A DNA stretch of 64,000 nt from Podarcis vaucheri (taxonomy: Eukaryota): the NCBI GenBank assembly GCA_965113315.1, contig OZ220375.1; one strand, given 5' to 3'. Shown piece after piece: positions 16,197-63,439 of this stretch (position 1 is its first letter; each line of letters opens with the position of its first letter). Both the position numbers and the translations under genes were made by a program. Below the pieces are notes generated by a model. The model made no database searches, had not been told where the DNA came from, and saw only the letters and a list, made by a program, of their open reading frames with translations.

Positions 16197-16727
16197 TTTA
16201 CAACAATACAACAATACCTGCATATAATACAACAATACCTGCATATAATTCATGCAATGAGACAAGTTGCCTGGTTTTAAATCATAGTTTGAAAATGGAG
16301 TTGAGAAGTGGCTTTAATCTAAATATATAACACTTCTGCTTTGTATCCGGAAACTAGTGCCTTTGCTCTTGAGTTTCCTGTTGTTGTTAGTTCACCAAGG
16401 AAAAGTTCTTCTGCGCCCCACCCCATGTGGAGCAGAACTGGGCGTAAAAAATAGCAAAAGTGTCATTCAGACTCCAAACTCTGAACAAGTGATTAATACT
16501 CCTATACTACAATTACTCAAATGACTGCAATCTCTTCACCAGGTAAAGCCCCCAGATGGTTTCATGAGGTAGGTAGAAAACAATCAACAAGGAAGCCAGA
16601 AAGTATTTAAAAAATAAGCTCATATGCTATGGAGAGTCAGGCAGGTCACGATTTATGAGAATATAATCTCTGTTACTGCTACAGAAATGTATTTGATTAA
16701 ATGTATATCATAAGCTTGGCTGCCAGG

Positions 16728-38900: not shown

Positions 38901-41900
38901 TGTGGAGCATTGATCTTGGAAATAATTAACTTTATTTTCAGCATAGTGACAAAATTCTACCAACATGTTCTTGCCTTGGCTTTTGCTGTGAAAGAAATAA
39001 ATGAGAGTCCTAACATCTTGCCCAACTTCACTCTTGGCTTCCACATCTATGATAGCTATTATGATGCAAGGATGACCTACCGTACTACCCTAGACCTGCT
39101 CTTCAAAATGCACAAATTCGTCCCCAACTACAAATGTGACTTTCAGAAAAACCTCATATCCATCATTGGGGGACTCGGGGCTGGTACCTCCTTTCTTATG
39201 GCAGACATATTAGGTCTCTATAAGATTCCACAGGTAGGATGTATGAATGGGAGCCTGGTGTTTTTTGTTTTGTTTTGGTTTGGTTTTGCTCCCTTTATGT
39301 GCTTTATCCAATGAGTGTTCTCCTCAGAGTAGACACATCAGGTAGCATTTAGGATTGTTATGAGTTTGCTTGCCTAGGCTTCCCTTCTAATTCTTGGAGG
39401 TGGATTTAACAAAGTGCTAAAATAAAGGCCAAACCATTTTCCCATGTCTAGTAAACCACCCGACAGAGGAACCATCAAGGAAAACAAAGAATGGTAATGG
39501 CTGAGTTGGTAACCAAACAAAGGGTAGGAAGTGGGGCCATTTAAAAAGCTGAGATTTGGCAAGTGGGGGAAGCCCCTCTCTGAGCCCAATGAGTAGAAAG
39601 ACAAAACCTTGGAAGGAGATGAGAGAGGTGAGGGGTTTTTTTTGGGGGGGGTAGAGCAGTTTTGCTTGATGTAAGCAAGAGTCAAAAGTTGTGTTTTGAA
39701 AGCAATTTGCAAGCTGGGGAAAAAGCAATCAAAGCAATGTGGGCTGGGAGTTTTGAATCCGAGGTGACCACTTTGAAAGAAACAAGACCCTCTTGGAGTG
39801 CAATGTTCAGGTTGTACAGGATGAGTCTTTTAAAAGAGGCCCCATGGAACATGTGTATTCTGTATCCACAGGGCCTCTTTTAAAGGACTCACACTGTATA
39901 TATGTGTAAATAAACCATATATCATAAAGACACCGTGGTCTCTAGTGTGCCTCATTTCCAAAGGAAACACAAACCCTCCATAAGTGCCTTGACCTCTGCA
40001 GTCTCACACTGCTATGGAGATTGGGCTGGTGTGTTAAAGTATCATGACTAAGTTAGGTCCTTTAATTTCTATGGGCGTATCCTTTATTCTGTTTTTCCTA
40101 CATCTTTATTTAATTTTTCCTGTCCATGTCATTCTCTTTGTGTTATTTTTAGGGATGTGCAACTGATCTGTTCAAATTTCAAATCAAAATGGGGAATGGG
40201 GAAAGAAACTTATAATAAACCCCAACTGGATAAATCCTTAGCTTTAACCTGTGGATTACTCCAAAAATATCTGTTGAATAAGAAATCATGTTGTATAGCA
40301 TGAGTGCTCTTGACATAACTAGATAATATGTGTACATTTCCTTTCAGCTCACGTATGGTTCATTTCCCCCAGAGGAGAGTGATTCAAAACAGGTTTCTGC
40401 ATTTTACCGAATGGTACCCAATGAACTCCATCAGTACATAGGGATTATCAGCTTGCTTAAGCATTTTGGATGGACATGGGTTGGACTCTTTGCTCAAGAT
40501 GATGCCAAAGGAGAATATTTCATCAACATCCTGGAGCCACTGCTTTCTCAAAATGGAATTTGTTCAGCCTTCACACAAAGAGTCCCACAACTAGTGCACT
40601 ATGATGACTTGGGTAAAATTAGTGATATAGCCTTAAATATGTATGTACTATTCACAGATAATAAAACCACTACATTCATCATCTATGGAGAATCTTTGAT
40701 GATTATATGGCTGAGAGCTATCATATTTTTGCGAGATCCTGCAAATGAGGAAGACATTTCATTTAGAAAGGTGTGGATCTTGACAGCCCAGATTGATTTC
40801 ATATTAATGGGCTTTCATAAGACTTGGGGACTCCAGCTCTTCCATGGTGCCATTTCATTCACAATTCACTCACAAAATCTTCTAAAGTTCACCGAATTTC
40901 TTCAGAGCATTAAGCATTCCCAGAGCCAGGGAGATGGTTTTTTCAAAGACTTCTGGGAACAAGCATTTGATTGTTTCTTACCAAATCCCAATGTGCCAAT
41001 GAATGCCAATGACATATGCACTGGGGAAGAGAGGTTGCAGAGTCTTCCAGGTCCTCTTTTTGAAATGTGCATGACTGGCCACAGCTACAGTATCTACAAA
41101 GCTGTCAATGTTGTGGCTCATGCCTTGCATGACTTTTATTCATCTAGATCCAGGCAGCGAACAATGGGAGGAAGTCAAATAGTAGAACTTCGGGATCTGC
41201 AGCCTTGGCAGGTAATGCTGTACAAATGAAGTGAAACAAAATATATTATTATTTAAATCAACAATTTATTACATGATCGATTAAGACAAGTAACAGCTGA
41301 AATGATGTTCCACATCCTACTGACTGCCAATGTTTTATGTTTCCATATTAATCTCTCTACATTTTGCCTGAAAATATTTTTTTTTGTGTGTTCCATCAAT
41401 CCATAATAAAATGCCCAATGTAAAAACAAAAGAAAACTGATTTTTAACACTTGCTCTTTGTTAGATGATGTTAAATAAATATATCTAAAAAGGATTCTGG
41501 TAAGGCATGTCATTGTCGCCAATATTTTCATAACATTCTTTCCCCCTCATGTCTCTTTTCTCCTTTAATTAGCTTCACCCCATTTTTCATAGCATTTCAT
41601 TTAACAACTCAGCTGGAGAAACAGTATCATTTACAGATAACAGAGAAATGCGAGGTGGATTTGACATAATGAACATGGTCACATTTCCAAACAAGTCCTT
41701 CATTCGAATGAAAATAGGATGGGTGAATCCTAATGCTCTTGATGGAAAAGAATTCATCATTCATGAGGACATGATCATTTGGCACAATGGTTTTAACCAG
41801 GTTAGGTTCTGGGGTATTCTTGTGGGCTCCTCACTTTCCACATCAATCCTTCAAATGCTCAGAATAACCACCATTCTTCTCTTGGAGAAGTTCATAGAAA

Positions 41901-44900
41901 TAATATGTATATTTTCTAACAATATTTGGAAATAAACTTCTAATAATATTTACTATGCCTCATTTATATATGACAGGGCTCAGGATGATCCAAATGAAAA
42001 TTATTCATGAAGCAAAAATTGGTTGATTCAGTTTTAATGGAAACAGGGGCATGGCTCAGTTGAAGTTCCATATCATATTCTTTTCAGGTCTAGGTAGGGC
42101 TGAACCACCCGACCTCATCTGCATTCCTATAGAGCTGATATTGCTTCCCCCATCATCCTCAAAGCATCAAGGTGGAAGCATATTTGTGAGACTTGCCAGA
42201 AGCCTGGAAACAGTAATCCACAGATGGGTGGTTTATATTTGGGATGCATAAACAGAGAATATATAACGCTTTCCCACCAGCTTCCTTCATTGAAGCCATA
42301 GCACCCATCTCTTGCTCCTGGTAGACTGCATGAGATATGCTGGTTGCCACAGTTGGGGCCAGGTAAAATATTTTGTTCTCTTCTTTCTTTGTCTGGCTCA
42401 GGTTGGAGGTATTTTTCCTTCTACTTCATATACCTAACCAGAATCTCCAGATAACTGCAGTTACTTGTGGGAGTCAGATAATTAGTTGAATTTGTTTTCT
42501 GGTCATTTGACATATATATACAGGAGAGGAAAAAGGTTGCCAAAACTGGTTTGTATGCTGTTGTCAGGGACTGTGCTGAGGAGGACTGTACTGAGGAGGA
42601 ATGGTGGGAGCCTCCCCCTCCCCCTGCTCCAGATCCTGACTCTTCCCAGAAGCAGGAGGACAGTATAGATTTGGAACAGTGATTTGCAGAGGGTCATTGT
42701 TCAGAAGGCAGAAGCTGGGAAATACTGGATGGGAAACAGATAGGAGAATCATAGAATCATAGAATCATAGAGTTGGAAGAGACCACAAGGGCCATCGAGT
42801 CCAACCCCCTGCCAAGCAGGAAACACCATCAGAGCACTCCTGACATATGGTTGTCAAGCCTCTGCTTAAAGACCTCCAAAGTAGGAGACTCCACCACACT
42901 CCTTGGCAGCAAATTCCACTGTCGAACAGCTCTTACTGTCAGGAAGTTCTTCCTAATGTTTAGGTGGAATCTTCTTTCTTGTAGAAGAAGAAACACTGGA
43001 AGAGAGAGGGTTAACAGATTCACAGTCTCTGGACAGCATTCACACACACACACTTCTCCAAAGTCATGGAGAGCTCAGAAAGTGGCAGAAGAGAAAGCAC
43101 AGAGGGTACAAGCTCAGATTGCATGACGTAAGAGTGACATAGATTAATAGGAAGGGAAGGGGGTGTGATCCTTAATTGGGAGCACTGCCTTTTCTAGGAG
43201 ATGTGTTCTTTGTTCTCTTGCTGTGATTATTAAAGTTTCTAACTTGTGAGAAGACTCCTTTTCTGCTTGTTATATTTGTCTACTGCCCTGGGGGGAAGAA
43301 GCCAATTCCTTGAAGCCTGACAGCTGTGGTCTCTATAGCCTGTTCAACAGGGTATGGTCACTTTACATATTAATCAATGTGGGCCTTAGATGGGGTGGTG
43401 AATCAGGAAGATCTCACCCAATCAAGAAAGGCTTAGGAGAGTGATAGAGGTTTGCCACACCTGGTCTTCTCCCTATATAGTTTACAATTTCTTAGCATTA
43501 ATAAAATGGTCCTAATTTAATATGTATATTGTGTTTTGCATCTTTACTTCTGATTTCCTAAGACAAACATTTAACTTCATATAAAATACATTTTCTGTAA
43601 AAATGTTTAAGGGATGACTGGTCCACTTTCTTATTCGAAGTTCAACAACTTAAAATTTCTTTCAAGTATTTCACCCTTTGGAAATTATTTCTGGTTTATT
43701 GATAGGTGGTGCCTATTTCTGTGTGTAATGACTACTGCTGCCCTGGTAATCAGAAGAAAAAGAAGGAAGGCGGGAAATTTTGCTGCTATGATTGTGTTCC
43801 ATGTCCAGAAGGGAAGGTCTCAAACAGAAATGGTATATGACAATGATCCCCTACCTACTGTGTGGCATCATGGTTAGAGTGTCAGACTATGATCTGGGAG
43901 ACCATGGTTCAAAACCCCACAGGGTTCAAATGAAGCCCACTGGGTTGCCTTGGGCCAATCATAAAAAAAATAATTTTATCATTTATTCCCTGTCCTTTTG
44001 CCTGGGTTCCCCCAGCCACTCTGGGCAGCTTACAGCACATATAAAATCACAGAAAACCTCAACCATTAAAAACTTCCCTATTCAAGTCTTCTTTCAGATG
44101 TCTTCTAAAAGTCATGAAGTTGTTTATCTTTGGCATCTGATGGGAGGGCATTCCACAAGGAAGGCACCACTGCCAAGAAGGTCCTCCGCCTGGTTTTAAC
44201 CAGGAGACCCTTGGAGGAGGAGCTCAGTTTCTGGGCTGAATGATAGAGGTGATGATGCTCCTTCAGGTATACTGGACCAAGGCTATTTAGGGCTTTAAAG
44301 GTCACCATCTCTTAACCTAACCTACATCACAGGGTGGTTGTGAGGTTGAAATGGGGAGGCAGAGAACCATGTACACTACCCTGAGCTCCATGGAAGAAAA
44401 TGGAGGTATATAATTGTATAATGATGATGATGATGATACTGTCAGAGAGTATTGGCTTCAGACCCCATTTTTACTTTTGTTTTTGAATAAAGAGGGCATG
44501 GGGTGAGGACACTGATGTAGAAATAAATCCCCCTATTTTCATCAAAGGAATGCTGGAGGGTATGGAATTGGCATGGCAGCATTGTTTCACTTGGATCTGC
44601 CATCCTGAAATCACCAGATAAAGCCTATTGACCTCCACCTGCAGGTTGAATGGAGTGGCAGCTTAAACTGCTTTAAGCAAAACTTTGATAATTTCAGTCA
44701 ACATCTTTAACAACAATTCAAATCATTCCACATCAAATCATGCTCATTCAGAATAAGAAGGTTCAGATGAACAGTAGCAACAATTGTTACATAGGAGGAA
44801 AACAAAACAAAACAAAACAAAACAAAACAGACATGCATTGCCACTGAAATTTTATCCTCTTCTGTTTTTTCAGATATGGAAAACTGCTTCAGATGCCCAG

Positions 44901-45775
44901 AAGATCAGTATCCAAACCAGAACAAAAATGGATGCATCCCCAAAATAATAAGCTTTCTTTCTTATGAGGAACCATTAGGGATCATCTTAGCCTCAGTTGC
45001 TCTTACTTTTTCCCTGATCACAATATTGGTGCTAGGAATGTTTATTCAACAAAAAAACACTCCCATAGTGAAAGCCAACAACTGGGACCTCACATTCACT
45101 CTCCTAGTCTCCCTCCTGCTCTGCTTCCTCTCATCTTTGCTGTTCCTAGGAAAACCTGGGAAAGTGACCTGCCTTCTTCGCCAACCAACTTTTGGCATTG
45201 TCTTCTCAGTAGCTATTTCTTGTGTGTTGGCCAAAACCATCACCGTAGTTGTAGCTTTCATGGCCACAAAGCCAGGCTCCAGTATGAGGAAGTGGGTGGG
45301 AAAAAGACTGACCAGTGTCATTGTTCTCCCCTGCTCTCTTACTCAAGCAAGCATCTGTACTGTGTGGTTGATGACTTCGCCTCCATTTCCTGCTCTAGAC
45401 ATGTACTCAGTAATGGAAGAAACCATTGTGCAGTGCAATGAAGGGTCAACTACCTTGTTTTACTGTGTCTTGGGCTACATGGGCTTCCTGGCCATTGCCA
45501 GCTTCATTGTGGCATTCAAAGCTCGTGAATTACCTGACAGTTTTAATGAGGCCAAGTTTATTACCTTCAGCATGTTGCTGTTTTGCAGTGTTTGGCTGAC
45601 CTTTGTTCCAACCTATCTGAGCACCAAAGGGAAATCCATGGTGGTGGTGGAGATCTTCTCCATCTTGTCTTCCAGTGCTGGATTGTTGGGATGCATCTTT
45701 GCCCCGAAATGTTACATCATTATGCTGAGGCCAGAGCTGAATAGCAGAGAGCAACTAATAAGGAGAAAGAAGTGA
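35908..45775 (+). CDS. V2R gene E, open frame, ~893 aa if the upstream ATG at 35908 is used
   Basis: join(35908..36176,38942..39233,40348..41211,41573..41800,43706..43832,44874..45775), 2682 nt in frame. The position homologous to the paralogs' start codon (35962) is GTC, so the start is uncertain. Confidence 0.88.
42562..43322 (+). mobile_element. Solo LTR with a nested CR1 fragment, in gene E intron 4
   Basis: TGTCAG...CTGACA termini; perfect 5-bp TSD GCTGT (42557-42561 / 43323-43327); a related copy lies at 56907-57441. Confidence 0.8.
42746..42981 (-). mobile_element. CR1 3' end nested in the solo LTR
   Basis: Near-identical to 34571-34805. Confidence 0.9.
43858..44438 (+). mobile_element. 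Old tRNA-derived SINE (Squam3/MIR-like) interrupted by an L2 3' fragment (~43975-44308, - strand)
   Basis: A/B-box-like tggcatcatggttagag...ggttcaaaacc; (ATG)n tail. The internal segment matches the L2 end at 2889-3255. Confidence 0.65.
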
Positions 45776-47544: not shown

Positions 47545-47602
47545 CCTGGCCTCCTAGCTTCTCTAAAAATACAGACCTTCCTGTGCCCATCAGTATCAAG
47601 TT

Positions 47603-49519
47603 GTGTGGCAAGTTCCCTCCCCCAAAGAAATGAAGGCACAGGACACGTTAGTTAAGGTTAATGGGCGTAAATGGCCACAACTTTATTGATTACAGAATTG
47701 AAGGTATTGGCCTTAGGCATTGGTTCCTATGACTACCCGGCATGGTAACCGGGAAGGGTTGAACACAAACCGTGGGGGTGTCCTGCTGGAGTACGCCAGC
47801 TAGGACCCCCACGGGTGTCACCGCTCGTGGGCGTGCCGGCGGCCCTCACCTTACTAGGTCTCGGACAAGGCAAACGCCCCCGGAGTCCTCTACCGGACTA
47901 CCCTTTTCTCGGGGGAAGGTGATGGCGTGTCCTTCCCCCCCATCCATTTGCATCACAATAGACCCCTGCCAATGCCTAACCGCCAAAACCGTGAAAGTTG
48001 TGACGATTTGCTACGAGGTAGGCGAAAAAACCAAAAGGCTGCAAAGTCGCCAACTTGGAAAAATTCCTACCAGGCCCCTTGCGGCGACCAACCGAAGTCC
48101 ATAGCAAGGTCAAGACTGCCTAACCTAAGGGTGGGTGGGCTGGGAAAAGCTTCTCTGCTGCCGAGGGGAAAGAGGGGGATCCCGGGGCGTGCCTGGCCTT
48201 AAATAGCCCAGGCCACGCCTCCCCAGCCCGCCTATTGGCGGGCAGGGGGAAGGCGGAGAGGCACGCCCCCGGGGATTCCCTGGCTCTCGCGGGGCTAAAC
48301 TCCAGCCCCGCGCTTGTGGGAGGGGCCAGCCCACAACACCCTCTCCTCCCGAGGCTCGGAAATGGCTTTGTGTGGCAAGTTCCCTCCCCCAAAGAAATGA
48401 AGACACAGGACACGTTAGTTAAGGTTAATGGGCGTAAATGGCCACAACTTTATTGATTACAGAATTGAAGGTATTGGCCTTAGGCATTGGTTCCTATGAC
48501 TACCCGGCATGGTAACCGGGAAGGGTTGAACACAAACCGTGGGGGTGTCCTGCTGGAGTACGCCAGCTAGGACCCCCACGGGTGTCACCGCTCGTGGGCG
48601 TGCCGGCGGCCCTCACCTTACTAGGTCTCGGACAAGGCAAACGCCCCCGGAGTCCTCTACCGGACTACCCTTTTCTCGGGGGAAGGTGATGGCGTGTCCT
48701 TCCCCCCCATCCATTTGCATCACAATAGACCCCTGCCAATGCCTAACCGCCAAAACCGTGAAAGTTGTGACGATTTGCTACGAGGTAGGCGAAAAAACCA
48801 AAAGGCTGCAAAGTCGCCAACTTGGAAAAATTCCTACCAGGCCCCTTGCGGCGACCAACCGAAGTCCATAGCAAGGTCAAGACTGCCTAACCTAAGGGTG
48901 GGTGGGCTGGGAAAAGCTTCTCTGCTGCCGAGGGGAAAGAGGGGGATCCCGGGGCGTGCCTGGCCTTAAATAGCCCAGGCCACGCCTCCCCAGCCCGCCT
49001 ATTGGCGGGCAGGGGGAAGGCGGAGAGGCACGCCCCCGGGGATTCCCTGGCTCTCGCGGGGCTAAACTCCAGCCCCGCGCTTGTGGGAGGGGCCAGCCCA
49101 CAACACCCTCTCCTCCCGAGGCTCGGAAATGGCTTTGTGTGGCAAGTTCCCTCCCCCAAAGAAATGAAGACACAGGACACGTTAGTTAAGGTTAATGGGC
49201 GTAAATGGCCACAACTTTATTGATTACAGAATTGAAGGTATTGGCCTTAGGCATTGGTTCCTATGACTACCCGGCATGGTAACCGGGAAGGGTTGAACAC
49301 AAACCGTGGGGGTGTCCTGCTGGAGTACGCCAGCTAGGACCCCCACGGGTGTCACCGCTCGTGGGCGTGCCGGCGGCCCTCACCTTACTAGGTCTCGGAC
49401 AAGGCAAACGCCCCCGGAGTCCTCTACCGGACTACCCTTTTCTCGGGGGAAGGTGATGGCGTGTCCTTCCCCCCCATCCATTTGCATCACAATAGACCCC
49501 TGCCAATGCCTAACCGCCA
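47603..49519 (-). repeat. 3' split-direct-repeat block of the Ngaro element; 767-bp period, ~2.5 copies (B3-X-A3-B2-X-A2-B1)
   Basis: B = 47603-47985, 48370-48752, 49137-49519 (383 bp). X = 47986-48145, 48753-48912 (160 bp). A = 48146-48369, 48913-49136 (224 bp). Copies look identical except G/A at 47636. Confidence 0.95.
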
Positions 49520-49546
49520 CTCGAGCAAAGCTCGCCGCCAATACCT

Positions 49547-50161
49547 TCAGGCCTGTAACCAACCCCTAATCCCTGCTATGATATCTCCCAACCATATATC
49601 ATTCCCTGCATCGGACAAATGCACGCCATCCCGCCTGTAGAGGGCCTCGTTGCTGAACTGTATGTTTGGGTGTCGGATGATGCACCCGCCCAAGGCCACC
49701 ACTCTACGTTCCACTGCCCGCTCTAAAACTTTCCTTGCTTTATTCACACCCACTGGGCTCGCGCAGTCCCTCCATGTCCTCCTCTCAAGCAACGAGGACC
49801 ACAGTATATTGATGTTTGGGTACACTGTCACCAGCTCGGACAGGTCATCAAAAATGTTCCATCTGAGGTCTATCGCCTTGCGGTATGCGAGGTCGTTCTC
49901 GCCCAACTGAATCACTAATGCATCCGGAGGCCCTTCAAAGGCAGCCTTCGCCATCACTGCTGGCTTGAACTCACTCCAGCGCATCCCTCTCCACGCTAGC
50001 CACGCCAGCTCCACCTTCGCAGGCAACTTCAGATTTTGCCCTAGCCCTGTACTCATGGCCCGAATCCTGGCCCAATGAACTATACTGTGGCCCACCAACC
50101 AGATGCGCGCCTTTTTAGATCCTGGAAAGCAAGCAGACGGGGAAAAGGGGTTTAGCGGCAT
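49547..50161 (-). CDS. SGNH/GDSL-type hydrolase ORF of the Ngaro element
   Basis: Block I LVGHS, block II RGM, block III QLGEND, block V DGVHLS: S-G-N-H residues plus DxxH. Confidence 0.85.
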   Translation of the reverse strand: MPLNPFSPSACFPGSKKARIWLVGHSIVHWARIRAMSTGLGQNLKLPAKVELAWLAWRGMRWSEFKPAVMAKAAFEGPPDALVIQLGENDLAYRKAIDLRWNIFDDLSELVTVYPNINILWSSLLERRTWRDCASPVGVNKARKVLERAVERRVVALGGCIIRHPNIQFSNEALYRRDGVHLSDAGNDIWLGDIIAGIRGWLQA

Positions 50162-50170
50162 ACCTCTTAG

Positions 50171-51061
50171 TCATACGCTATTTCTGACATATGTTTTATA
50201 AGCATTGGATCTCCATCTCCCCATTTCCTTAATCCTGTTGGTGGAGAGCCCCAGATGCACTGCGGTGGTGGCCGCCCCAATGCGGAAAGAATGTGCCGCA
50301 AACTCAGCCGCTGGTAGCCCACATGCCGTCAAAGCCATACGCATCACCCTGGTGAATTGCTGCCTGGCCAATCGCGACCCGTCTGCGTGGATCAGCAGGG
50401 GACCCGGGTTTTTTGGCCTGAGGTATAGAAAGCGTCTCGTGTCCCTTACCGGACAGGGGCCCTTGTCTTGGACTGCTGGAAGGCGGAGAAGAGTCCCTTT
50501 TCCCTGTTGGTCTGTCTTTGAGCTCCGCACCCTAACTATTAGATCCGACTGTGACAGGGTCAGATCGCTTAACAGGATGCCCCTCTGTGTATGGTTGACC
50601 CCCCCTTCGCAGACGACCTCCCCAATACGTAGTGCGCCAAAAAATGATATAGAGAACGCAGCCGAGAATAGGCGTGCTTCGTACTTAGACCAGCACACTG
50701 AGCGTAATGCTTTGTGAATCTGTGACAAGATGTCATACGTTATAGGCCGCCTCCTATCTGCACTAGGGGGGTGCTGTCTGCGCCATCCTTCCAGTGTCTT
50801 GCGTACGATAAAAGCCGCGCACGGGTCGGTCGCAAAAAAGGCTTTACAAAAGTAAGAAATCCCTGCTGACTGGATATTAAGGGTTTTGGGTGCCCTGCCT
50901 AACTCTTTCAGGTGAGCCAAGTAGTGGAGGACCTCTCTCGTTGAGGGTGTAGCGAAGGGCCTGGCGCCCGGTGTATTACTACGGAATTTTAGAAAATCCG
51001 CCCAAGCTTTCTTGTATGAACGCATTGTGGACGGAGCCACAGCACCGAATACTCCCTTCAT
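50171..51061 (-). CDS. Tyrosine recombinase (296 aa)
   Basis: FFGALRIGE (catalytic R), SKTDQ, CPV, HSFRIGAAT (HxxR), GRWRSNAYKTY (W and catalytic Y). The ATG overlaps the RT stop as TAATG. Confidence 0.95.
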   Translation of the reverse strand: MKGVFGAVAPSTMRSYKKAWADFLKFRSNTPGARPFATPSTREVLHYLAHLKELGRAPKTLNIQSAGISYFCKAFFATDPCAAFIVRKTLEGWRRQHPPSADRRRPITYDILSQIHKALRSVCWSKYEARLFSAAFSISFFGALRIGEVVCEGGVNHTQRGILLSDLTLSQSDLIVRVRSSKTDQQGKGTLLRLPAVQDKGPCPVRDTRRFLYLRPKNPGPLLIHADGSRLARQQFTRVMRMALTACGLPAAEFAAHSFRIGAATTAVHLGLSTNRIKEMGRWRSNAYKTYVRNSV

Positions 51062-52914
51062 TACTTCTCTCTCCCAAGATTCCAGAGATGCTCCGGGAAA
51101 GGCATCGATGATTGCTCCGCATCCGGCGCTAAAGAGCGAAAGCGCTCCATCTGAAAACGAGACAGAGCATCCGCGATGTCATTATTAACGCCAGGTACGA
51201 ATTTGGCCGAAAAGTATATGTTCCGTTCCAGACACAGAAGTACAAAGGATCGTAGGAGGTTTCCTACTCTGGAGGAGCGTGCGGATTGTCTAGCCAGGAC
51301 CGAAACCACTGCCTGATTGTCTGTATTGAAACAAACCCTATGATTGCTAAACTGCTCCGCCCAAAGATGTACCGCTACTACTATCGGGAAAAATTCCAAA
51401 AATGTAAGGTCGCGGGTAATGGGCTGACCCCGCCATTCCTGGGGCCACTCTCTGGCGCACCATTGGCCTTTAAAGTAGACCCCAAAACCCAGCGACCCTG
51501 CCGCATCTGACTGAACCTGGAAGTCCGCGCTCAGTGCCATGGAGTCCTGCCATAGAGATATACCGTTGTACCTTTCCAAAAATTGCAGCCAGACGCCCAG
51601 GTCAGCCTTGACTTCCTTGGATAGGCGTACCCTATGCTGTGGTGCCTTAAGGCCCGCCGATAATCTGGCCAAGCGGTTACAAAAGGGGCGCCCCGGCGCC
51701 ACCACCCTACAGGCGAAATTTAAATGACCCAGCAATGATTGAATCTGTTTCAGGGTGATTTTCTTTAGGGGCAACAGCTGTTGAATCAATGCCTTGAGTG
51801 CCAAGAGCTTATCTACTGGCAACCGTGAGGTCTGGGCCACAGTATCCAGCTCAATACCCAAATACACTAAACAGGTGGCCGGGCCCTCCGTTTTGTCAGC
51901 GGCTAGAGGTACCCCCAATTCCCTCGCCAAGGCTGTGAAGGCCTCGAGGAGGGCTGAACAACGGGCTTTACTGTCAGCAGCCAAAATAAAATCATCAAGA
52001 TAATGCGACACACCCAACGACCCAGTTTTGTGTTGTAAAGCCCAATCCAGAAATGTGCTAAAGGATTCAAAGGCCGCGCAAGCCACGGAGCAGCCCATGG
52101 GCATCGCCTTGTCGATAAAATAAGCCCCTTCAAATTTAAAGCCTAACCATCGGAAGTCCTCTGGACGCACTGGGAGAAGGCGGAAGGCCGACTCGATGTC
52201 ACACTTTGCTAAGAATGCCCCCTGCCCAAATCTCCGAATCATTTTTACTGCCTGATCGAAGGAGGCGTATTTGACTGAACAGAGCTCCTGGGGAATTGCA
52301 TCGTTGACTGAGCCCCCCCTAGGGTATGAGAGGTTATGAATCATCCGAAATTCCCCAGGGGCCTTTTTTGGAACGATGCCCAGGGGAGATAGATGAAGTC
52401 CTGCCAAGGGTGGCTCATCGAAGGGACCAGCCACTCTTCCTGCCCTGATTTCTTTCTCTATCTTTTTCCTAGCTATATCGGGCCTCTCCCTAACTGATTT
52501 TTGATTTTGGGGTACGCCGGAATTGGGGGGAACAGCGACCGGGATTCTGAAACCTTTGGAGAAACCTTCCCATAGATAGTGTGCGGCTTCACGATCAGGG
52601 TATATTTTTAGCAGGGTATTTAAAGGCTGTAAGCGGATAGGGGAAAAAGCCATGCCAAGATCGAAATTATTAACGGATACCTGAAACCTAGTGGAGGGAT
52701 CCGCTGATGCCTCTGGTAAAGCTGTGTTGATATTATTGGCGGTTACCTGCTCCCAGTTGTGCGGATCCGGGGGCGCCCCTGGCGTTGCTGTGGGAGTACC
52801 CCCTGCCACCCCGAAAGGGCTGTTGTTTACCCTTGAAGCAGGCAGAGGCGGGATGGTTACCCCAGCAGCGCTCACACTCGTGGAGGTACTTACAGAAGGG
52901 GCGTGTGCATGCAC
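51061..52914 (-). CDS. Ngaro reverse transcriptase / RNase H
   Basis: SPLGIVPKK, FRMIHNLS, KCDIESAFR, MPMG, YLDD, YLGI. RNase H motifs SDAAG, LEFFPI, TDN, NNDIADALSR. Overlaps the gag 3' end in another frame; the true start is uncertain. Confidence 0.93.
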   Translation of the reverse strand: MHAHAPSVSTSTSVSAAGVTIPPLPASRVNNSPFGVAGGTPTATPGAPPDPHNWEQVTANNINTALPEASADPSTRFQVSVNNFDLGMAFSPIRLQPLNTLLKIYPDREAAHYLWEGFSKGFRIPVAVPPNSGVPQNQKSVRERPDIARKKIEKEIRAGRVAGPFDEPPLAGLHLSPLGIVPKKAPGEFRMIHNLSYPRGGSVNDAIPQELCSVKYASFDQAVKMIRRFGQGAFLAKCDIESAFRLLPVRPEDFRWLGFKFEGAYFIDKAMPMGCSVACAAFESFSTFLDWALQHKTGSLGVSHYLDDFILAADSKARCSALLEAFTALARELGVPLAADKTEGPATCLVYLGIELDTVAQTSRLPVDKLLALKALIQQLLPLKKITLKQIQSLLGHLNFACRVVAPGRPFCNRLARLSAGLKAPQHRVRLSKEVKADLGVWLQFLERYNGISLWQDSMALSADFQVQSDAAGSLGFGVYFKGQWCAREWPQEWRGQPITRDLTFLEFFPIVVAVHLWAEQFSNHRVCFNTDNQAVVSVLARQSARSSRVGNLLRSFVLLCLERNIYFSAKFVPGVNNDIADALSRFQMERFRSLAPDAEQSSMPFPEHLWNLGREK

Positions 52915-54253
52915 CCCTGTTGAACTCCCAACACTGGCGCCGCCGTTTTACCTCGGTCTTGCCCACTTTAGCCGAATCCAGATTTTTCTTATCAATGTAT
53001 GGATTCACATCTTCTCCCCAGTAGTTTGGATCAGTAAGGTCCCATCGGGTGGTAGGGTGCAGAGACGCGTTTCTGCGGAAATTCTCATCATATATCAGTG
53101 CAGCATTTTCTCCCGCGAGTGCGCGGGCCCTCCTTACGTGAGCCATATAGGCCACGAGATCCATGGAGCGTCTGGGATAAGCAGCGCACACGACCCCCAT
53201 AAACACCTGATAGCCATCTAGCCAGTTCTCGAAAGTGCGCTCCGCTCTAGGCGTTCTATACCTTCTCTTACCGTAAGAGCGCCTCTTTTCACCTCTTCCC
53301 ACTAATTTGTTAGGAGGAAGGAGGGTAAATATATCCACGTACTCCCCATTAAGGATTTTATTCCTCTTTTTCTGTGATAGATGGTTCCCCAATATGAAAT
53401 CCGTGGGCTGGTTGGTGGCAACTTTTACCTCCTCTACTAGAGCCCCGTCCTTCCAATCAAGCACCCCATTAAAGGTCTTCCGATGGGAATTGGCCCTCCG
53501 TTGATGTGCCCACAAAGGAATCCCATGAATACTTTCACCTTGACCCCAGTAGCCATCCATGGGGCCCTCACTATCAGAATCTGAAGAGGACGTACCTGTA
53601 TCCTCATCCGAGTCCGATTTGCTGCTCCTCTTCTTTTTTGCGGAGGTGTGCTTCTTCTTTGACTTCCTCTTACCCCCTTGCGTGCCTGTGTCGGCTGAGT
53701 TGGTCTCCGCGGCCGACTGAGGTGGTTGAGGTTCCACTCGGTCCTCGTCGGACCCCGAACCTGCGCTGTCCTCGGTGGAGCTATGCTGAGGCTCTTCCTC
53801 CTGAAAAACACTCGGAATACCTGATGTTTGTGAGAGGGGTATGACATTGGCCCCCTTAGCCGGAGTCTTCCCTTTGTCCCCACGCTTCGCAGGTGCCTTG
53901 CCCTTGCTGCCACCTTGTGCCGCCTTCCTGGATAGCGCGGACTGGGCACGTGTATTGGGGCGGCTTGCGGTTGATGTCACAGGCAGGGCATTGGCTGCTG
54001 CCACGAGAGGTGCACCAACCTGACCTTGATTGGCTGGTGGCGTGTCAGGTATGATGTTCTGTGAGGGCTCTGGGGCCGGAAGAGCCCCGGGCACGGGTCT
54101 GCATTGTCTATAAAAAGATTCAAATGCCCTGAAAAGCTGGTCAAAAGTTTGAGGATTGCAAGATATTGACACCATGCGTGCGCCCTCACTACCTGCAGCA
54201 CCCGCTGACTGATTACCGGAGGTGGAGGGCTGTTGCTCGCCTCCGGAAGCCAT
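52733..54253 (-). CDS. Ngaro Gag-like ORF1 (506 aa)
   Basis: Low-complexity N-terminal half, basic/acidic linker, and C-terminal zinc fingers CWEFNRGACTRPFCKYLH (CCCH) followed by CERCWGNHPASAC, as expected for YR-retrotransposon ORF1. Confidence 0.85.
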   Translation of the reverse strand: MASGGEQQPSTSGNQSAGAAGSEGARMVSISCNPQTFDQLFRAFESFYRQCRPVPGALPAPEPSQNIIPDTPPANQGQVGAPLVAAANALPVTSTASRPNTRAQSALSRKAAQGGSKGKAPAKRGDKGKTPAKGANVIPLSQTSGIPSVFQEEEPQHSSTEDSAGSGSDEDRVEPQPPQSAAETNSADTGTQGGKRKSKKKHTSAKKKRSSKSDSDEDTGTSSSDSDSEGPMDGYWGQGESIHGIPLWAHQRRANSHRKTFNGVLDWKDGALVEEVKVATNQPTDFILGNHLSQKKRNKILNGEYVDIFTLLPPNKLVGRGEKRRSYGKRRYRTPRAERTFENWLDGYQVFMGVVCAAYPRRSMDLVAYMAHVRRARALAGENAALIYDENFRRNASLHPTTRWDLTDPNYWGEDVNPYIDKKNLDSAKVGKTEVKRRRQCWEFNRGACTRPFCKYLHECERCWGNHPASACFKGKQQPFRGGRGYSHSNARGAPGSAQLGAGNRQ

Positions 54254-54350
54254 TGCAATCGCAACTGTTTTTTAACAAACCTGCAAATCTAGCAAGGCGA
54301 ACAGACCCCCCCTTCCACCTCTACTTTTCTTTTATAAATAAACTTTATTT

Positions 54351-54528
54351 NNNNNNNNNNNNNNNNNNNNNNNNNNNNNNNNNNNNNNNNNNNNNNNNNN
54401 NNNNNNNNNNNNNNNNNNNNNNNNNNNNNNNNNNNNNNNNNNNNNNNNNNNNNNNNNNNNNNNNNNNNNNNNNNNNNNNNNNNNNNNNNNNNNNNNNNNN
54501 NNNNNNNNNNNNNNNNNNNNNNNNNNNN
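54351..54528. other. Assembly gap (178 N)
   Basis: Run of N in the 5' untranslated part of the Ngaro element. Confidence 0.99.
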
Positions 54529-56126
54529 TAGTTATATAACCACACCAGTAAGAATTATTATCAAGTGTATCTGTAAATTTTATTCAAAGGGATTAGAGGG
54601 AGGGGAATTAACCTAAAGAGGACGCCTGACCGGTAAGTATGTAAACAAATCCGATGCCAATTAAACGCTTACAAGCTAATCAGCGTATATCTAAACAGTC
54701 AGCTTCGCACCACTCGCCTCTTGCACCAGGTCCAATTGCTTATGCTTAATCTGAACTTGAGTGGAGCACCAAAGGGAGAACAGCGAGAGCTATGCCCCAA
54801 TGAATGACCTTAAGTCTGTTTCCAAATTTTATTGCCAGGAATTATAGTGGAGGCCGCCTATCCGGCCTTATGTAATTAATTCTGATGCCAATTAAATGCT
54901 TTACCACGCTAATCCAGCTTAAAAGCTCCTCAACTAGTACTAAAAAAGATTTGTAACAATAAAGGAAATTTTTAATTCTATTTTATTTATTCTATTTTTC
55001 AAAAAAAAAAAAAAACCAACTATTTAACTAATACTCTTCTTGTATTGCCAGAAATCTCTTACAATGCATAAACATGAACTGTTGTGTGACTAGCCTGGCT
55101 GCTAAAGGAGATATAACGCTGTAAAATAAGGTCTCCAAATCGCAGGCTGCAATAACAACTCCTGCCGCTAGGTGGCAGTGTTCCCTAGGAATTAGCAGAA
55201 AACAAACCCTCGGCTGCAGACAGAAAGGCAGTTCAATCACCAGAATATAAAGCAGCAAAAACTACTGAAAAACGGGCAATAACAGAAGGAAAAGCAACTA
55301 AATAATCTCTAAATAACAGAAGGAAAAGCGGAGATAAAAGTTAAATGGCCCTACTCAAAATGGCTGCCGGGACGCACCACGGCGACCTTACCAAGATGGC
55401 GGCCGGGAGGGAGATGCCCTCAGTCAAACTGGCGTCCCTCAACAATTATGGCCCTAAGTAACCAAACGTCCAGAAAGCGGTATTAAATGCAGGTACAACA
55501 ACAACCACTAAATATCAGAGGCAGAAACGGAGAAAACAATAAAATGTCACACTCAAAATGGCCGCCGCTGGAATGCCACGTGGACCTTCCCAAGATGGCG
55601 GCCGCTGTGACCTTCCTCCCTTACACAATTTCTGCTTCGTTTGCCCTTAAATATGGCGCCTGCCTCTCCTTAGCAGACTCCCTTGCCAAAGATGGCTGCC
55701 GCGACTTCAATCACCCCCCCCCCCACAAATACAGACAGCTGAAGAAACCACAGAAAAAACACAGCGATTTCGGCAAAATCAGCAGGTAAAATCGGAGGCA
55801 GCACGGGAGGGCTAGTGGCAAGGCACAGCGGCAGCGAAGTGAGAGGGGAGAGGAGAGGGGAGGGTTATGAGCAGAGGAAAGGCTACGGAGATGCAGCGCC
55901 ACGGGGATGGGACGGCAGCAGTACAGCAGAAATAGGCAGAATTAAAGCGACCAAGTTGTGGAACCAGCAGAATAAAGCAGGCAATCGCCGCGCAGGGGAA
56001 AATTCGGTCCTGTGGCCGCAGTGATACTATACCCGTCTTCTTTGCTGGTGTTCCGGTCTGAGCTGAAGGAAGCACCCTGCTCTGGACGGATTTTTGTGCA
56101 GGTAGAGTAGGAAGGTAAGGAAAAAG

Positions 56127-56350
56127 AAAGCTTCTCTGCTGCCGAGGGGAAAGAGGGGGATCCCGGGGCGTGCCTGGCCTTAAATAGCCCAGGCCACGCC
56201 TCCCCAGCCCGCCTATTGGCGGGCAGGGGGAAGGCGGAGAGGCACGCCCCCGGGGATTCCCTGGCTCTCGCGGGGCTAAACTCCAGCCCCGCGCTTGTGG
56301 GAGGGGCCAGCCCACAACACCCTCTCCTCCCGAGGCTCGGAAATGGCTTT
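56127..56350 (-). promoter_or_regulatory. Ngaro 5' repeat A1 with candidate Pol II promoter
   Basis: Identical to A2/A3. On the - strand: CCAAT (56219-56215), GC-box-like GGGGAGGCGTGGC, and TATTTAA (56186-56180), in canonical order facing gag. Confidence 0.65.
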
Positions 56351-56625: not shown

Positions 56626-56889
56626 GTGTAGTGTTTAAGAGTGGTGGACTCGTAATTTGATGAACCGGGTTTGCTTCCCTGCACCTCCACATGCAGCTGC
56701 TGGGTGACCTTGGGCTAGACACACTTCTCTGAAGTCTCTCGGCCTCACTTACCTCACAGAGTGTTTGTTGTAGGGGAGGAAGGGAAAAGAGATTGTTAGC
56801 CGCTTTCAGACTCCTTAAGGGGAGTGAAAGGCAGGATATCAAGTCCAAACTCCTCCTCCTCCTCCTCTTCTTCCTCTTCCTCTTCCTTC
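56626..56889 (+). mobile_element. Squam3-like tRNA-derived SINE
   Basis: gtgtagtgtttaagagtggtggactc head, ctgctgggtgaccttgggctag body, (CTC/CTT)n tail. Confidence 0.78.
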
Positions 56890-56906
56890 TAAGAAACCTC
56901 TATGGC

Positions 56907-57916: not shown

Positions 57917-60900
57917 TCAGTTCTTTCTCATTATTTGCTCCCTATTGTTCAGCTCAGGCCTCAGCACAATGATGTAGCATTTACGGGCAAAAATGCAGCC
58001 CAATAATCCAGCGCTGGAGGACAAGATGGAGAAGATCTCCACCTCCACCATGGATTTCCCTTTGGTGTTTAGATATGTTGGGATAAAGGTCAGCCAAACA
58101 CTGCAAAACAACAACATGCTGAAGGTAATAAACTTGGCTTCATTAAAACTGTCTGGTAATTTGCGAGCTGCAAATGCCACAATGAAGCTGGCAAGAGCCA
58201 GGAGGCCCATGTAGCCCAGAACAAGATAAAACAGGGTCACAGACCCTTCATTACATTGCACAATGGTCTCTTCTGCTACAGAGTCCATGTCTAGATCGGG
58301 GAATGGGGGAGAAGTCATCAACCACACAGTACAAATACTTGCTTGAGTAAGAGAGCAGGAAAGGAAAATGGCATAAGCCAGACGTTTTCCTACCCACTTC
58401 CTTGTGCTAGATCCTGGGTTAGTGGCCATAAAAGCTACAACTACAGTGACAGTTTTCGCCAACACACATGAAACAGCCAGTGAGAAGACGATGCCAAATG
58501 TTGGTTGGCGAAGAATGCAGGTCACTTCCCCAGGTTTTCCAACGAATAGCAAAGATGAGAGGAAGCAGAACAGTAGCGAGATGAGGAGAATGTAAGTTAG
58601 ATCCCGGTTGTTGGCTTTGACAATGGGAGTATCTTTGTATTTAATAAAAGTTCCTATCACCAAACTTGTGAGCAGTGAAAAAGAAAGAGCAAGTGAGGCC
58701 AAGCTGATCCCAAATGATTCATTGTAAGAAAGAAAGCTTATTATTTTGGGGATGCATCCAGTTTTGTTCTTGTTTGGATACTGATCTCCTGGGCATATGA
58801 TACACTCATCCATATCTGAAAAGTAGAATAAGGTCAAATTCCAGTAGCAATTCATGTGTGCTCTTTACGTCTTTTTTTATCTTATCCTTCTGATTTTAAG
58901 GGATTTATAATTATATAACAGTATGTGAAATAATTTTTTTGAGTATTCTGCTGAATGTATGATGTTTGAATTTAAACAATATTAAGCTGCTGCTCCATGC
59001 ACCCTGCACATCAGGGCTTGTTACAACTACACGTAAATGGGGGGGCATCAGGCATCAGTGGGCTCTTGTGTTGCTTGGGAGGGCACAAGGGGCCTGGTAG
59101 AGCATAGAATGAAAGCATGCCCCCAGATCAAGTGAGACTGGCCTTACATAACTCATCCCATGGTTGCCTTCTGGGATCCAGGATACTTGTCTTATGACAC
59201 ACCAGTGCTGGTCAACTCCTAAGGGTATTGATTGGATGCATTTCAACCATCAAGTGGAATTTGAACTGCACGTGCTCATTGAAATGATAACCCTTATGCT
59301 TTTGCCAGCCCTGCTTGCCTGTGCAATAATGAATACAAATCTGGCCTCATTGCAACCTAATTGCAACTCCTAGGCAATTATAGCTCAAACATAACTTTGT
59401 TTATTTGGCGATCTGTACTATGAACGCGAGTGGCACTGTGGGGGACACGGGTGGCACTGTGGTCTAAACCACAGAGCCTAGGGCTTGCCGATCAGAAGGT
59501 TGGCAGTTTGAATCCCCACGATGGGGTGGGCTCCCATTGCTCAGTCCCTGCTCCTGCCAACCTAGCAGTTCCAAAGCACCTCAAAGTGCAAGTAGATATC
59601 TACCTTAAGGACTACTATAAACTCGCTGAATGTTAGAATGTCGAGGTTTGAGTAAGAAAGGGTTACAGCGAAATAAGATTAGATTGAAGAAAAGATTAAG
59701 AAGACAGAGGACTGACAGATGTACTTAGAGTTGCTAAAAACTTTTGGACAGTTGGATGCAGAAAGGGGAGGTATGGGGAAGTCGGAGAAACATGGTTTAT
59801 GAAAAAAGGTTATGAAACTATACGTGTTTGTATGTCTTTTTACATGTTTGTATTGTCCTAAAAAAAATGTAAAACCAATAAAAAATTTATAAAAAACAAA
59901 AAAACAAAGTGCAAGTAGATAAATAGGTACCGCTCCAGAGAAAAGGTAAATGGTATTTCCGTGCACTGCTCTGGTTCACCAGAAGCGGCTTAGTCATGGT
60001 GGCCACATGACCTGGAAGCTGTATGCTGGCTCCCATGGCCAGTAAAACGAGATGAGCGCCACAACCCCAGAGTCATCTGCAAGTGGACCTAATTGTCAGG
60101 GGTCCCTTTTCCTTCACCTTTAGGCAATTATAGTACTTGATATGTGTACAACAAAATACATTTGAGCGAAGTGGGGAGCACTTCCGTATCTAGGTTCATA
60201 GTATTGCAACAGGTTTATTTGTTTTTGAATATTTCCTTCACATGTTACTGAAAAAATGCAGAAAAACATTAGCACACAGCTCTAAGCAGGATAGTCTGGT
60301 TGCATGTAAAAATGTAGCATTTAAATCGATTTGACACAATAATCTTTACTAAAATTGAACAATGAAAAATGTTGTGTACCATTTTGGTTGGAAATCTTCC
60401 CTTCTGGACATGGAGTACAATCATAGCAGCAAAATTTCTGCCCTTCCTTCCTTTTCTTCTGACTACCAGGGCGGCAGTAGTCATTACACAGAGAAATGGG
60501 CATCACCTTTCCAGAAACAAGAAATAATTTCATAAGGGAGAAACTGAACGTCTTATCCAAAGTGCTTCATATGAAGTGCAGCAATTAGCCCATATTTTGT
60601 TAGGGGACCAGAAAAAGCAGCAAGACACAAGACCAGAAAAAATGCAAGATACATGAAATAAGCTAGGGCCATTTTATCAGCTGTAACTTTAGGAATTTAT
60701 AAATAGCAAAGGACATGTGTGGAAAATGCTTAAATCAATCAGGCTCCTAAACTGGCACTAATTGGGTGAGGTCTTCATGATTCATAACACCTTTAAAATC
60801 TTGCAGGTTCTTACACAGAGCACTGTGACAAGTCTCTAGAATTAGAATCCACAAGGGGCTCAATTTCTTTGCCAACCTCTTTCCTTTCCCACACCCACCT

Positions 60901-63439
60901 GCCAAGTGACCAGAAAGCCAATTCAAGTAATGTGTATCCCACCTGTCGTTCCTGGTGGAAGTATCAAAGTAGGTGGAAGGAAGGTAGGTGGAAAAGGTCA
61001 ACCAGCCCATTTTGACCAGTCAAACATAGGAAGGAACATAAATTCCTGCTTGACACCAACTATGATGACAAGCTTATCTCATACTGCATAGTGGGAGGGA
61101 AGGCTTGGTGCAAACTCTCCTAAGAAGGAGGGGCAGAGGTAGGTGGAAATGACTTTATATCCTTTGTGATTTACTAACTAGCAGTAGCTCAAAACCACGC
61201 ATGAAGCCAGAAAATGAGTTCTGGGCCTTCTAAGGTGGGGTTCAGATTGTGAAGCAATATTAGTTCTCTAGGAATACTGCAAAAGGTTGGGTTTTTGTCA
61301 GTCCTATTGTCATGAAATTAATTTGATATGGGATCTGCAACTGAGCCATGGACCCTTTTCAAATGAAGCAGTAACCATCCATATCTGCCCCATGACTAAA
61401 TTTTATCTGAATCTTTCTAAGCTCTGTCATACAAAATAAAACCCAATGAATATTGTTAAAACTTCATTTTAACTAAGAACATAGAAATTAAAGCGCTTTT
61501 CGCAGTTGCATCCAGCTAGGTTTTCAGATTTTTCCCATGAAGCAGTCAAAAAGAAAAGTGGTGCTTATCAAGAGAGTGCATTGGGTCAAAGAAATACCCA
61601 ATTTCCAGACCTGGTTAAAGCCTTTGTTCCACAAAATAATGTCCTCATGAATGATTATCTCGTTTCTATTGACAGCAAGGGGATCCACCCATCCAACCTT
61701 CACTCGAAGGAAAGACTTGTTTGGGAAGGTGACCATGTTTGTGATGTCAAATCTACCTCCCATTTCTCTTTTATTAGCAAAAGACACTCTTTCTCCAGCT
61801 GAGTTGTTAAATGAAATGTCAGGAAGAAAATGGTGCAACTAATTGAAAGAGAAAAGAAAGATTAAGGGGAAATAACATAATAGAGATATTGAAGAAAATG
61901 GCTTGATGTATAAATGAGCACCATTTACATATAATTATGTTTGCTTGACAAAGCAGATGAAAAAATTGTTATGCATACAGTGAAAATAAATTCAGCCAAA
62001 TGCACAGGATTTAATATGAAAACATAAAGCTTTGCCAGTTAGTGACATGAGGAATACCACTGCAGCATTACTTCTGCATGAAAATTGTGATGAAATCTTA
62101 AGATGTATATTTGTAAAGTATTACCTGCCAAGGCTGCAGATCTTGAAGTTTTAATTTTCCACTGATACCCAATGTTCTCTGCTTGGATGTAGACAAGTAA
62201 ATAGCATGCAAAGTGTGAGCCACAACATAAACAGCATTGTAGATACTGTAACTATGGCCAGATAGTTCCATTGCAAAAAGAGAGCCTGGAAGACTCTCCA
62301 AACTCTCCTCCCCAGTACACAGTTCTTTGAGCTCCACTGTCAGATGGGGATTTGGAACTATACAGTCAAATGCTTGCTCCCAGAAGTCCTTGAGAAAATG
62401 ATCTCCCTGGCTCCAGGAAGGCTTGATGGTCAGAAGAAAATCTTTGAAATTTAGAAGATTTTGTGAATGAATTGTGAGGGATATGGCGCCTTGAAAGAGT
62501 TGAAAATCCCAAGAACTAACAAGCCCCGTTGCAATGAAATCAGTATGCGCTGTCAAAATCCACACCTTTTTAATTGCTAAGTTTTCCTTATTGGTTGGAT
62601 CTCGCAAAAATATAATAGCTCTCAGCGCTATAATTGTCAGAGATTCTCCATAGACAACAAATGTAGTTACTTTATTATCTGTGAGCAATGCATACAAATT
62701 TAAGGCTACCTCATGCATTTCATCCAGCTTATCAAGATGGAGTTGACGTGGGATTCTTTGTGTAAAGGCTGAACAAATTCCATTTTGAGAAAGCAGTGGC
62801 TCCAAGGTCTTGATGAAATATTCTCCAGTGTTATCATTTGGAGCAAAGAGTCCAACCCAGATCCATCCAAAATGCTTAAGCAAGCTAATAACCCCCCAAA
62901 ATTGATGGGCTTCATTGGGCACCATTCGATAAAAGGACGGGGACTGACTTGTGTCACCCTCTGGAGGAAATGAACCATATGCAAGCTATATATATATAAA
63001 AATCAGTTATGAAGTTATGTGAAAAGAATTCATAATGTGCAATGTGAAATTTCATTTAACAAATATTTGTTTAAACAATGTATAGGTTAAATCCAATATG
63101 GTCAGTAGGAATACAAACATTCCTATGCACCCCTTCAGACATCTTACCTGGGGAATTTTGTAGAGACTTAATATATCAGCCATATGTAAGGAGGTATCAG
63201 AGCCAAGTCCTCCAATGATGGATATGAGGGTTTTCTGGGTGTCACATTTGTAGTTGGAAATAAATGTACCCATTTTGAAGAGGAGGTCTAATGTAGTGCG
63301 GTAGGTCATCCTTGCATCATAGTAGCTATCATAGATGTGGAACCCCAGTGTGACATTGTGCAAAATGTTGGGATTCTCATTTATTTCTTTCACAGCAAAT
63401 GCCAAGGCAAGGACATGTTGGTAGAATTTGGTCACCACA
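57917..63439 (-). CDS. V2R gene G, exons 2-6 (exon 1 beyond the window end)
   Basis: complement(join(57917..58815,60380..60506,61611..61838,62125..62985,63148..63439)). Exon sizes 292/861/228/127/899, GT-AG, open frame. Confidence 0.9.
59442..60121 (+). mobile_element. Sauria SINE interrupted by an L1-type fragment (59599-59904)
   Basis: The SINE halves are separated by a ~306-bp A-tailed insert with a 17-bp TSD caaagtgcaagtagata (59582-59598 / 59905-59921). Confidence 0.85.

Follow-up and report, generated by a model that had tools for sequence, protein, structure and literature searches.

The window, by which we mean the whole 64-kb stretch of lizard DNA analyzed here, contains a minus-strand element of about 8.75 kb that, judged from its sequence, appears to be a young and intact Ngaro retrotransposon. 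The two flanking frames that we scanned matched 7tm_3 and ANF_receptor, and we take these frames to resemble vomeronasal type-2 receptor clusters. Receptor genes at 40327-45775 and 57917-62985 flank the element in inverted orientation and are 77 to 93% alike, and more frames of 290 to 320 aa recur across 601-33562. The features of the element, in its own 5′-to-3′ order, are as follows.

47601..56350, minus strand: whole element, about 8.75 kb, read as Ngaro; TT-core insertion among exons of the vomeronasal-receptor type (7tm_3/ANF)
56127..56350, minus strand: A1, 5′ repeat, 224 bp; CCAAT at A132, TATA-like TATTTAA at 56180-56186 (A165)
52733..54271, minus strand: ORF1, gag-like, 512 aa stop to stop; C-terminal CCCH zinc finger (zf-CCCH_10, E 0.016, below the cut-off)
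51061..52947, minus strand: ORF2, reverse transcriptase with RNase H-like tail, 628 aa (RVT_1, E 4e-14; RVT_3, E 0.021)
50171..51178, minus strand: ORF3, tyrosine recombinase, 335 aa; R184/H296/R299/Y330 present
49547..50170, minus strand: ORF4, SGNH-hydrolase-like, 207 aa (Lipase_GDSL_2, E 0.017, below the cut-off)
49135..49519, minus strand: B1, 385 bp with the TT core; AATAAA at 49216-49221
48913..49136, minus strand: A2, from self-comparison
48753..48912, minus strand: X, first copy, 160 bp; B-proximal arm at 48761-48776
48368..48752, minus strand: B2, identical to B1; AATAAA at 48449-48454
48146..48369, minus strand: A3, part of the extra unit, from self-comparison
47986..48145, minus strand: X, second copy; arm at 47994-48009
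47601..47985, minus strand: B3, terminal; private difference at 47636, AATAAA at 47682-47687

All of the N in the window form a single run of 178 in the 5′ noncoding part of the element, probably an assembly gap. The motif AANATGGCNGCC, which presumably resembles a YY1 site, occurs five times at 55357-55700 in the 5′ noncoding region (0.15 expected by chance), its copies sitting in a degenerate repeat with a 199-bp period. A SINE-like stretch at 56660-56890, presumably a Sauria SINE, has relatives elsewhere in the window, and its end matches 43230-43324.

Repeat structure of the element tail

Comparing the window with itself, we found that 47601-48752 equals 48368-49519 at a lag of 767, with a single mismatch at 47636. 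This 1,152-bp repeat, at 99.9% identity, far exceeds what chance would produce. Read along the minus strand, the element runs A1-ORFs-B1-A2-X-B2-A3-X-B3, and its three copies of A are 100% identical. This confirms the order, the copy sizes, and the single difference in the outermost copy that a first-pass annotation had described, and the same annotation was right that the internal B/A junctions recreate the joined ends of the element. Both internal junctions read GGCT-TT-GTGT, the left end CAAG-TT-GTGT, and the right end GGCT-TT-ATCG, and TT, counted in both A and B, is the sole core common to all of them. X had no real match in the remainder of the element (best E value, 1.8).

There was 1 difference in 609 independent bp of repeat (0.16%; 95% range, 0.004 to 0.9%), and this low divergence would mark a young insertion. 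The one private base, in B3, lies 34 bp from the element end and 36 bp from the unique flank. A1 is likely the promoter, to judge from its CCAAT and TATA-like boxes, and B has one AATAAA, at B299. All of the junction types in the array (B/A, A/X, and X/B) are also present in an element with one unit, and short reads are therefore unable to test the extra unit.

Coding content and assignment to Ngaro

The stretch from A1 to B1 holds four open frames. In an alignment of 26 sequences with ORF3, H296 and R299 were invariant and R184 and Y330 nearly so; going by excerpts of PMC8547959, these four residues would be the catalytic set of the recombinase. The best recombinase matches that carry an annotation were from Podarcis muralis (93% identity across 85% of the query), which makes a lacertid lizard the likely host; matches were named only "xerD homolog" or uncharacterized. 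The RNase H and gag matches are weaker than the Pfam cut-off. A homolog of ORF4 was found downstream of the recombinase (YR) in 13 other loci, and a comparison of ORF4 with the PDB gave no useful match.

Ngaro elements are defined by split direct repeats in the order A1...B1-A2-B2 (PMC9210276, in excerpt). The lizard element has such repeats, with A1 equal to A2 and B1 equal to B2 plus the one extra unit, and its frames follow the order gag, reverse transcriptase/RNase H (RT/RH), and tyrosine recombinase, the last with its R, H-x-x-R, and Y residues. It shows no target duplication beyond the short TT core, and the methyltransferase domain is absent after RT/RH: Pfam profiles revealed no Dam/MT methyltransferase family in ORF2 at E values up to 5. 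PAT-like DIRS elements are described as combining a methyltransferase domain with split repeats (PMC4157794 and PMC7192593, in excerpt), and we rejected this assignment on the lack of that domain in ORF2. A DIRS1-like assignment was rejected as well, the repeats being direct and inverted terminal repeats with an internal complementary region being absent.

The spacer X is normal for the family

To place the tail among related elements, we used the best 80 of 589 metagenome loci confirmed in a recombinase alignment and screened 38 of them for repeats downstream of the recombinase; these relatives are distant, with recombinases 32 to 38% identical to that of the lizard. A spacer separated A2 from B2 in all six relatives in which both the A and the B pairs were resolved, measuring 64 bp in L045, 61 bp in L054, 272 bp in L055, 208 bp in L065, 106 bp in L073, and 272 bp in L076 (61 to 272 bp across four families), although a single assembly series supplied all six, which are therefore not independent samples. 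B was also followed by X, with variable linkers, in 4/4 lizard sequencing runs. X thus appears to be a family-normal spacer and not an unusual feature, because a spacer recurs in every resolved relative and B-X in every lizard run, and its reading as a distinctive feature was not supported. TOC1 likewise has a unique spacer. Other repeat configurations are also stated to exist (PMC8969392, in excerpt).

Three relatives (L054, L055, and L065) have the same AT-rich core at the left end, at the B1/A2 junction, and at the end of B2, and L076 has it at B1/A2 and at the end of B2. Internal B/A junctions that match the joined ends are hence a trait of the family and not the sign of a live minicircle route that had been proposed for the lizard array. 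Two of the six resolved relatives have irregular edges. In L076, A1 is missing its initial 30 bp, and each flank carries a copy of a 96-bp T-rich stretch (3466-3561 and 10301-10396), which is unusual for an element without target duplication, and in L045 (9769-9928) B2 ends after 160 bp of the 230-bp B and is followed by unrelated flank.

Tail units vary in number

A B pair was found in 12 relatives, 9 of which had room for a further unit, and none of these 9 had a third B; 8 of the 9 are from the same assembly series. The extra unit of the lizard element thus appears atypical, since 0/9 relatives with room for it have one. We found no extra units described for Ngaro in the literature searched, which excluded the founding papers and Repbase reports; for TATE copies, an excerpt of PMC6681497 mentions "more complex patterns of repetitions."

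Units can also be missing. L064 has the structure A1-ORFs-B-flank, without A2-X-B2, and is 98.6% identical to the one-unit elements L055 and L076; a second copy of the same family begins 6.4 kb downstream of it (15714-16588). L067 and L070 represent two copies, on one contig, of a 13-kb segment; the copies are 97.8% identical (2.2% different overall) and share the same insertion site. L067 has B1, 258 bp, and B2; in L070, which lacks the interval from B1 to B2, only one B precedes that flank. Both zero-unit tails end precisely at the core, and the single B of L070 carries the B1 alleles at 3/3 sites where B1 and B2 of L067 differ. Tails with zero, one, and, in the lizard element, two units therefore exist in the assemblies. 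Because L067 and L070 share an insertion site and differ in unit number, at least one change of unit number would have come after insertion or segmental duplication, unless it is an assembly collapse. The part of the first-pass annotation that foresaw arrays of variable number is in this sense supported by the zero-unit tails, as is its view of the extra unit as atypical, but nothing in these data singles out a recombinase as the cause.

Unattached copies did not turn up where we looked. There were no free A-X-B copies in the 64-kb window and no solo units of the six relatives in 472 kb of the relatives' loci; pattern scans of metagenome, viral, and prokaryote collections gave 0 matches to copies of the lizard element, and no relatives of its recombinase were found in viral contigs.

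Origin of the extra unit

The likeliest cause of the extra unit, which we put forward tentatively and at somewhat less than an even chance, is mispairing of the identical 385-bp B repeats after insertion. Transcription would start late in A, at the TATA-like box at A165, and end late in B, at the AATAAA at B299, so that the RNA would contain neither the bulk of A1 nor the final stretch of the terminal B, and the internal B/A junction would serve as the template for rebuilding both ends. The junction likely equals the joined ends because the RNA lacks exactly the parts joined there, and not as the product of a minicircle route. Two B copies 767 bp apart would then make the tail an unstable direct repeat, in which mispairing during replication or sister-chromatid exchange would yield a two-unit tail, as in the lizard copy, and a reciprocal zero-unit tail, as in L064 and L070. 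On this reading the extra unit would simply be carried along as a passenger, with no need for a recombinase step. LTR elements commonly form tandem arrays with shared internal repeats; these arrays are polymorphic, and unequal recombination has been proposed for them (PMC11899658 and PMC7215508, in excerpts).

The private base at 47636 fits this explanation without deciding the matter. An unequal exchange between B1 and B2 predicts the difference only in the outermost B for crossovers in 351 of the 385 bp, but the likelihood ratio of late duplication or artifact over birth at insertion is only 1.6 to 2.8, so the base is no certificate that the unit is real. Its G allele is not among the 40 variants listed of 353. 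The zero-unit tails, for their part, could result from collapse in assembly or from excision by the recombinase, and the B1-type alleles of L070 may reflect a crossover at the B end or core or else later mutation in B2 of L067. In two lizard runs, contig depth of B over the ORFs for the piece next to B1 was 2.1 in run X3 and 2.5 in run X1, and it ranged from 1.8 to 3.8 over other pieces; these are depths of exact-match contigs and do not equal copy numbers. As the ratio depends on the piece, extra units in the family are neither excluded nor shown by it.

An artifact is unlikely in our judgment but deserves weight: the animal would carry an ordinary B1-A2-X-B2 tail, and an assembler or gap filler would have gone around the B-A-X-B loop a second time. 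Across 1,152 bp the two units differ at one base, close to the unique flank in which locus-specific reads would be anchored; the 178-N run lies in the same element, near-identical family copies are present in the lizard runs as exact pieces at high depth, and the structure occurs in 0/9 relatives. Against over-expansion, no N falls within the array, unit number does vary among relatives, and 6.9 kb of a young multicopy element with four open ORFs runs unbroken into unique flank, pointing to long or locally phased data; short-read assemblers, moreover, tend to collapse rather than expand such repeats. Somewhat less probable still is that the unit was born in retrotransposition, the strand having run on through A2-X-B2 or made an extra template switch, so that the insert already had two units. 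The architecture would require template switches between repeats, given the positions of the TATA-like box (A165) and AATAAA (B299), the copies are nearly identical as expected (1/609 bp), and template switching and read-through have been proposed as sources of tandem LTRs (PMC7215508 and PMC11899658, in excerpts). However, the SNP pattern favors late duplication by the ratio given above, L067 and L070 differ in unit number although they share an insertion site, and no relative with room for a further unit has a two-unit tail.

The first-pass annotation proposed instead that the recombinase releases 767-bp A-X-B circles that reinsert at B/A junctions or at new TT sites, and we consider this quite improbable. 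The ORF3 recombinase is intact by sequence, and the B/A junction is its predicted joined-end site. The zero-unit tails stop precisely at the core, with the B of L070 of the B1 type throughout, but a homologous exchange between B1 and B2 ends precisely at the core too. Reinsertion would also have to find the junction among abundant TT targets, and a circle cut from the element's own end after the SNP arose would have left G in two B copies, whereas it is seen in one. Short motifs of X and B reach 53 to 123 times ORF depth in two raw-read runs, which is compatible with many ORF-less relatives, but 78% of the matching reads enter unlike sequence, and the peaks may be motifs of diverged full-length families or ordinary solo units. 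Excerpts of the literature offer precedents in SIRE, the described A-unique-B mini-element of VIPER (PMC6681497), and in DIRS-1, reported to insert into itself (PMC7192593). Solo A-X-B units, suggested earlier as a test for the recombinase, would not discriminate, because A1-by-A2 exchange leaves them too, flanked by the original cores, as proposed for the solo repeats of Cafeteria (PMC8547959, in excerpt). In the same way, no result singles out the recombinase at the internal junctions, which had been read as live recombination sites, since B1-by-B2 exchange gives the same products. Mispairing of the B repeats after insertion hence remains our preferred explanation.

Predicted RNA pairing around the poly(A) signal of B

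The RNA of the tail is predicted to pair around the AAUAAA of B through two arms, one in X and the following one at the end of ORF4.

49537..49562, minus strand: U arm, 26 nt across the ORF4 stop; 24/26 pairing with B275-300 (49220-49245 in B1), running into AAUAAA

The U arm pairing with B scored 19, a score reached by 0/2046 background windows from the rest of the 64 kb (background maximum, 15); the first test of this arm (0/417) had used an arm picked after the match was noticed. The X arm (48761-48776) is complementary to B302-317 (48436-48451), that is, to the latter half of the hexamer plus the bases that follow, with a score of 12.5 that was matched or exceeded in 16/2046 background windows. 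Both contexts folded better than 100/100 shuffles (z, -4.6 for U and -4.3 for X), partly owing to hairpins inside B. Among distant relatives, the U-B helix was in the top 5% of background at 6/9 loci (5/7 families) and the X-B helix at 3/9 loci (2/7 families), against backgrounds of ORF DNA of different composition. At least two variants fall at the U helix among the 40 listed of 353, one at a mismatch (49551) and one that turns an adjacent G.U into A-U (49563), and these are too few for covariation.

In one raw-read run, the 60-bp bins containing the X arm and its B partner had 123 and 95 times the mean ORF depth, and in a second run 72 and 53 times; contigs of two other lizard runs peak at the same bins. 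Since the raw-read runs are capture libraries and 78% of those reads continue into unlike sequence, the peaks would be short motifs common to many diverged relatives. The X arm and its B partner are the most widely shared parts of the element among lizard relatives.

We rejected the model in which the U helix masks the poly(A) signal of B1. The whole-B duplex energy was nonsignificant (25/111 background, 18/100 shuffles), the cost of opening the hexamer was 1.7 to 3.3 kcal/mol at B1 versus 2.5 to 3.7 kcal/mol after X and so not higher at B1, and a comparable ORF4-end helix reaching the hexamer was found in 0/13 distant SGNH-bearing loci (best score, 11.5 versus 19). The predicted U helix itself stands despite the rejection of masking, and B1 and the terminal B would be predicted to fold differently around the poly(A) signal. 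In an ordinary element, X is likely functional, its B-proximal end pairing just after AAUAAA where the end of ORF4 pairs just before it; as a guess, the X arm might define a fold-back 3′ end or act as a priming signal. A further AATAAA lies inside ORF4 on the minus strand (49739-49744), upstream of B1, and full-length RNA must pass it. Rfam gave only five chance matches of the miRNA type in the repeats (E 3.8 to 4.7) and neither a ribozyme nor another known RNA. A hairpin at the B/A junction, considered as a recombinase site, was weak (z, -2.2; 9/300 shuffles) and off-center from the core, and we set it aside.

Possible mini-element and significance

A bolder reading, which we regard as improbable, is that A-X-B is a self-contained mini-element, with a promoter in A and a poly(A) signal in B; its X arm would fold back onto the final bases of the RNA, beyond AAUAAA, and so define the 3′ end or prime reverse transcription. 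The recombinase would move units at the B/A core and so produce the tails with zero, one, and two units; A2-X-B2-A3-X-B3 (1,536 bp) would be a complete ORF-less Ngaro, one of a large nonautonomous lacertid family far outnumbering the coding copies. Were this true, the X-arm step would be new for the whole order; priming of reverse transcription is described as unknown even for DIRS-1 (PMC7192593, in excerpt).

Should the extra unit prove to be no more than a product of exchange or of faulty assembly, its interest would be minor. Tails with zero, one, and two units would nevertheless be natural products of the split-repeat architecture, and their breakpoints would separate homologous exchange from recombinase action. 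The spacer, which is omitted from the usual diagrams, is general among the relatives examined, and in this lizard family the predicted pairing of its widely shared arm with the poly(A)-signal region of B makes it a mutable candidate cis signal.

Comparison with known elements

The lizard element resembles the Ngaro elements of Xenopus (DIRS-53_XT; PMC9210276) and Cafeteria (types 1 to 4; PMC8547959) in its A1-ORFs-B1-A2-B2 plan, with gag, RT/RH, and YR and with no methyltransferase found. Its repeats are near in size to those of DIRS-53_XT (A, 236 bp; B, 152 bp; PMC9210276), and it carries a putative SGNH-type ORF after YR, the position of the SGNH-type ORF in amphibian Ngaro elements. The schemes in the excerpts of PMC9210276 and PMC8547959 draw no spacer between A2 and B2, whereas all of the relatives resolved here have one. 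Unlike the Xenopus and Cafeteria elements as presented there, the lizard element has one extra A-X-B unit; this unit is what appears to be new here, the underlying element being, by its sequence, a Ngaro of the ordinary type with a normal spacer.

In combining A, a short unique segment, and B, the lizard unit is like SIRE of the Trypanosoma cruzi element VIPER, which consists of A, about 30 unique bp, and B (PMC6681497), and like the solo AB repeats of Cafeteria (PMC8547959). The authors of both papers, as excerpted, left open whether these arose by repeat recombination or by mobility in trans. SIRE and the Cafeteria solo repeats are free-standing, whereas we observed the lizard unit only within a full element, where it forms an additional tandem copy. 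The helix around the poly(A) signal recalls the HIV-1 polyA hairpin (PMC2645353, in excerpt), in which part of the AAUAAA of a repeated terminal sequence is likewise taken up in an RNA helix, but here the calculated opening cost of the hexamer at B1 does not exceed that at B2 and B3, and the same function is unsupported.

The closest parallel for the array as a whole is found among tandem LTR structures and tandem-array TRIMs such as Cassandra, which likewise form variable-number arrays that share internal terminal repeats within a single insertion, and for which unequal recombination and an origin in reverse transcription have likewise both been proposed (PMC11899658 and PMC7215508, in excerpts). 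Those arrays are built of whole LTRs in integrase-bearing elements, whereas the unit repeated in the lizard is the ORF-less split-repeat tail of a recombinase element.
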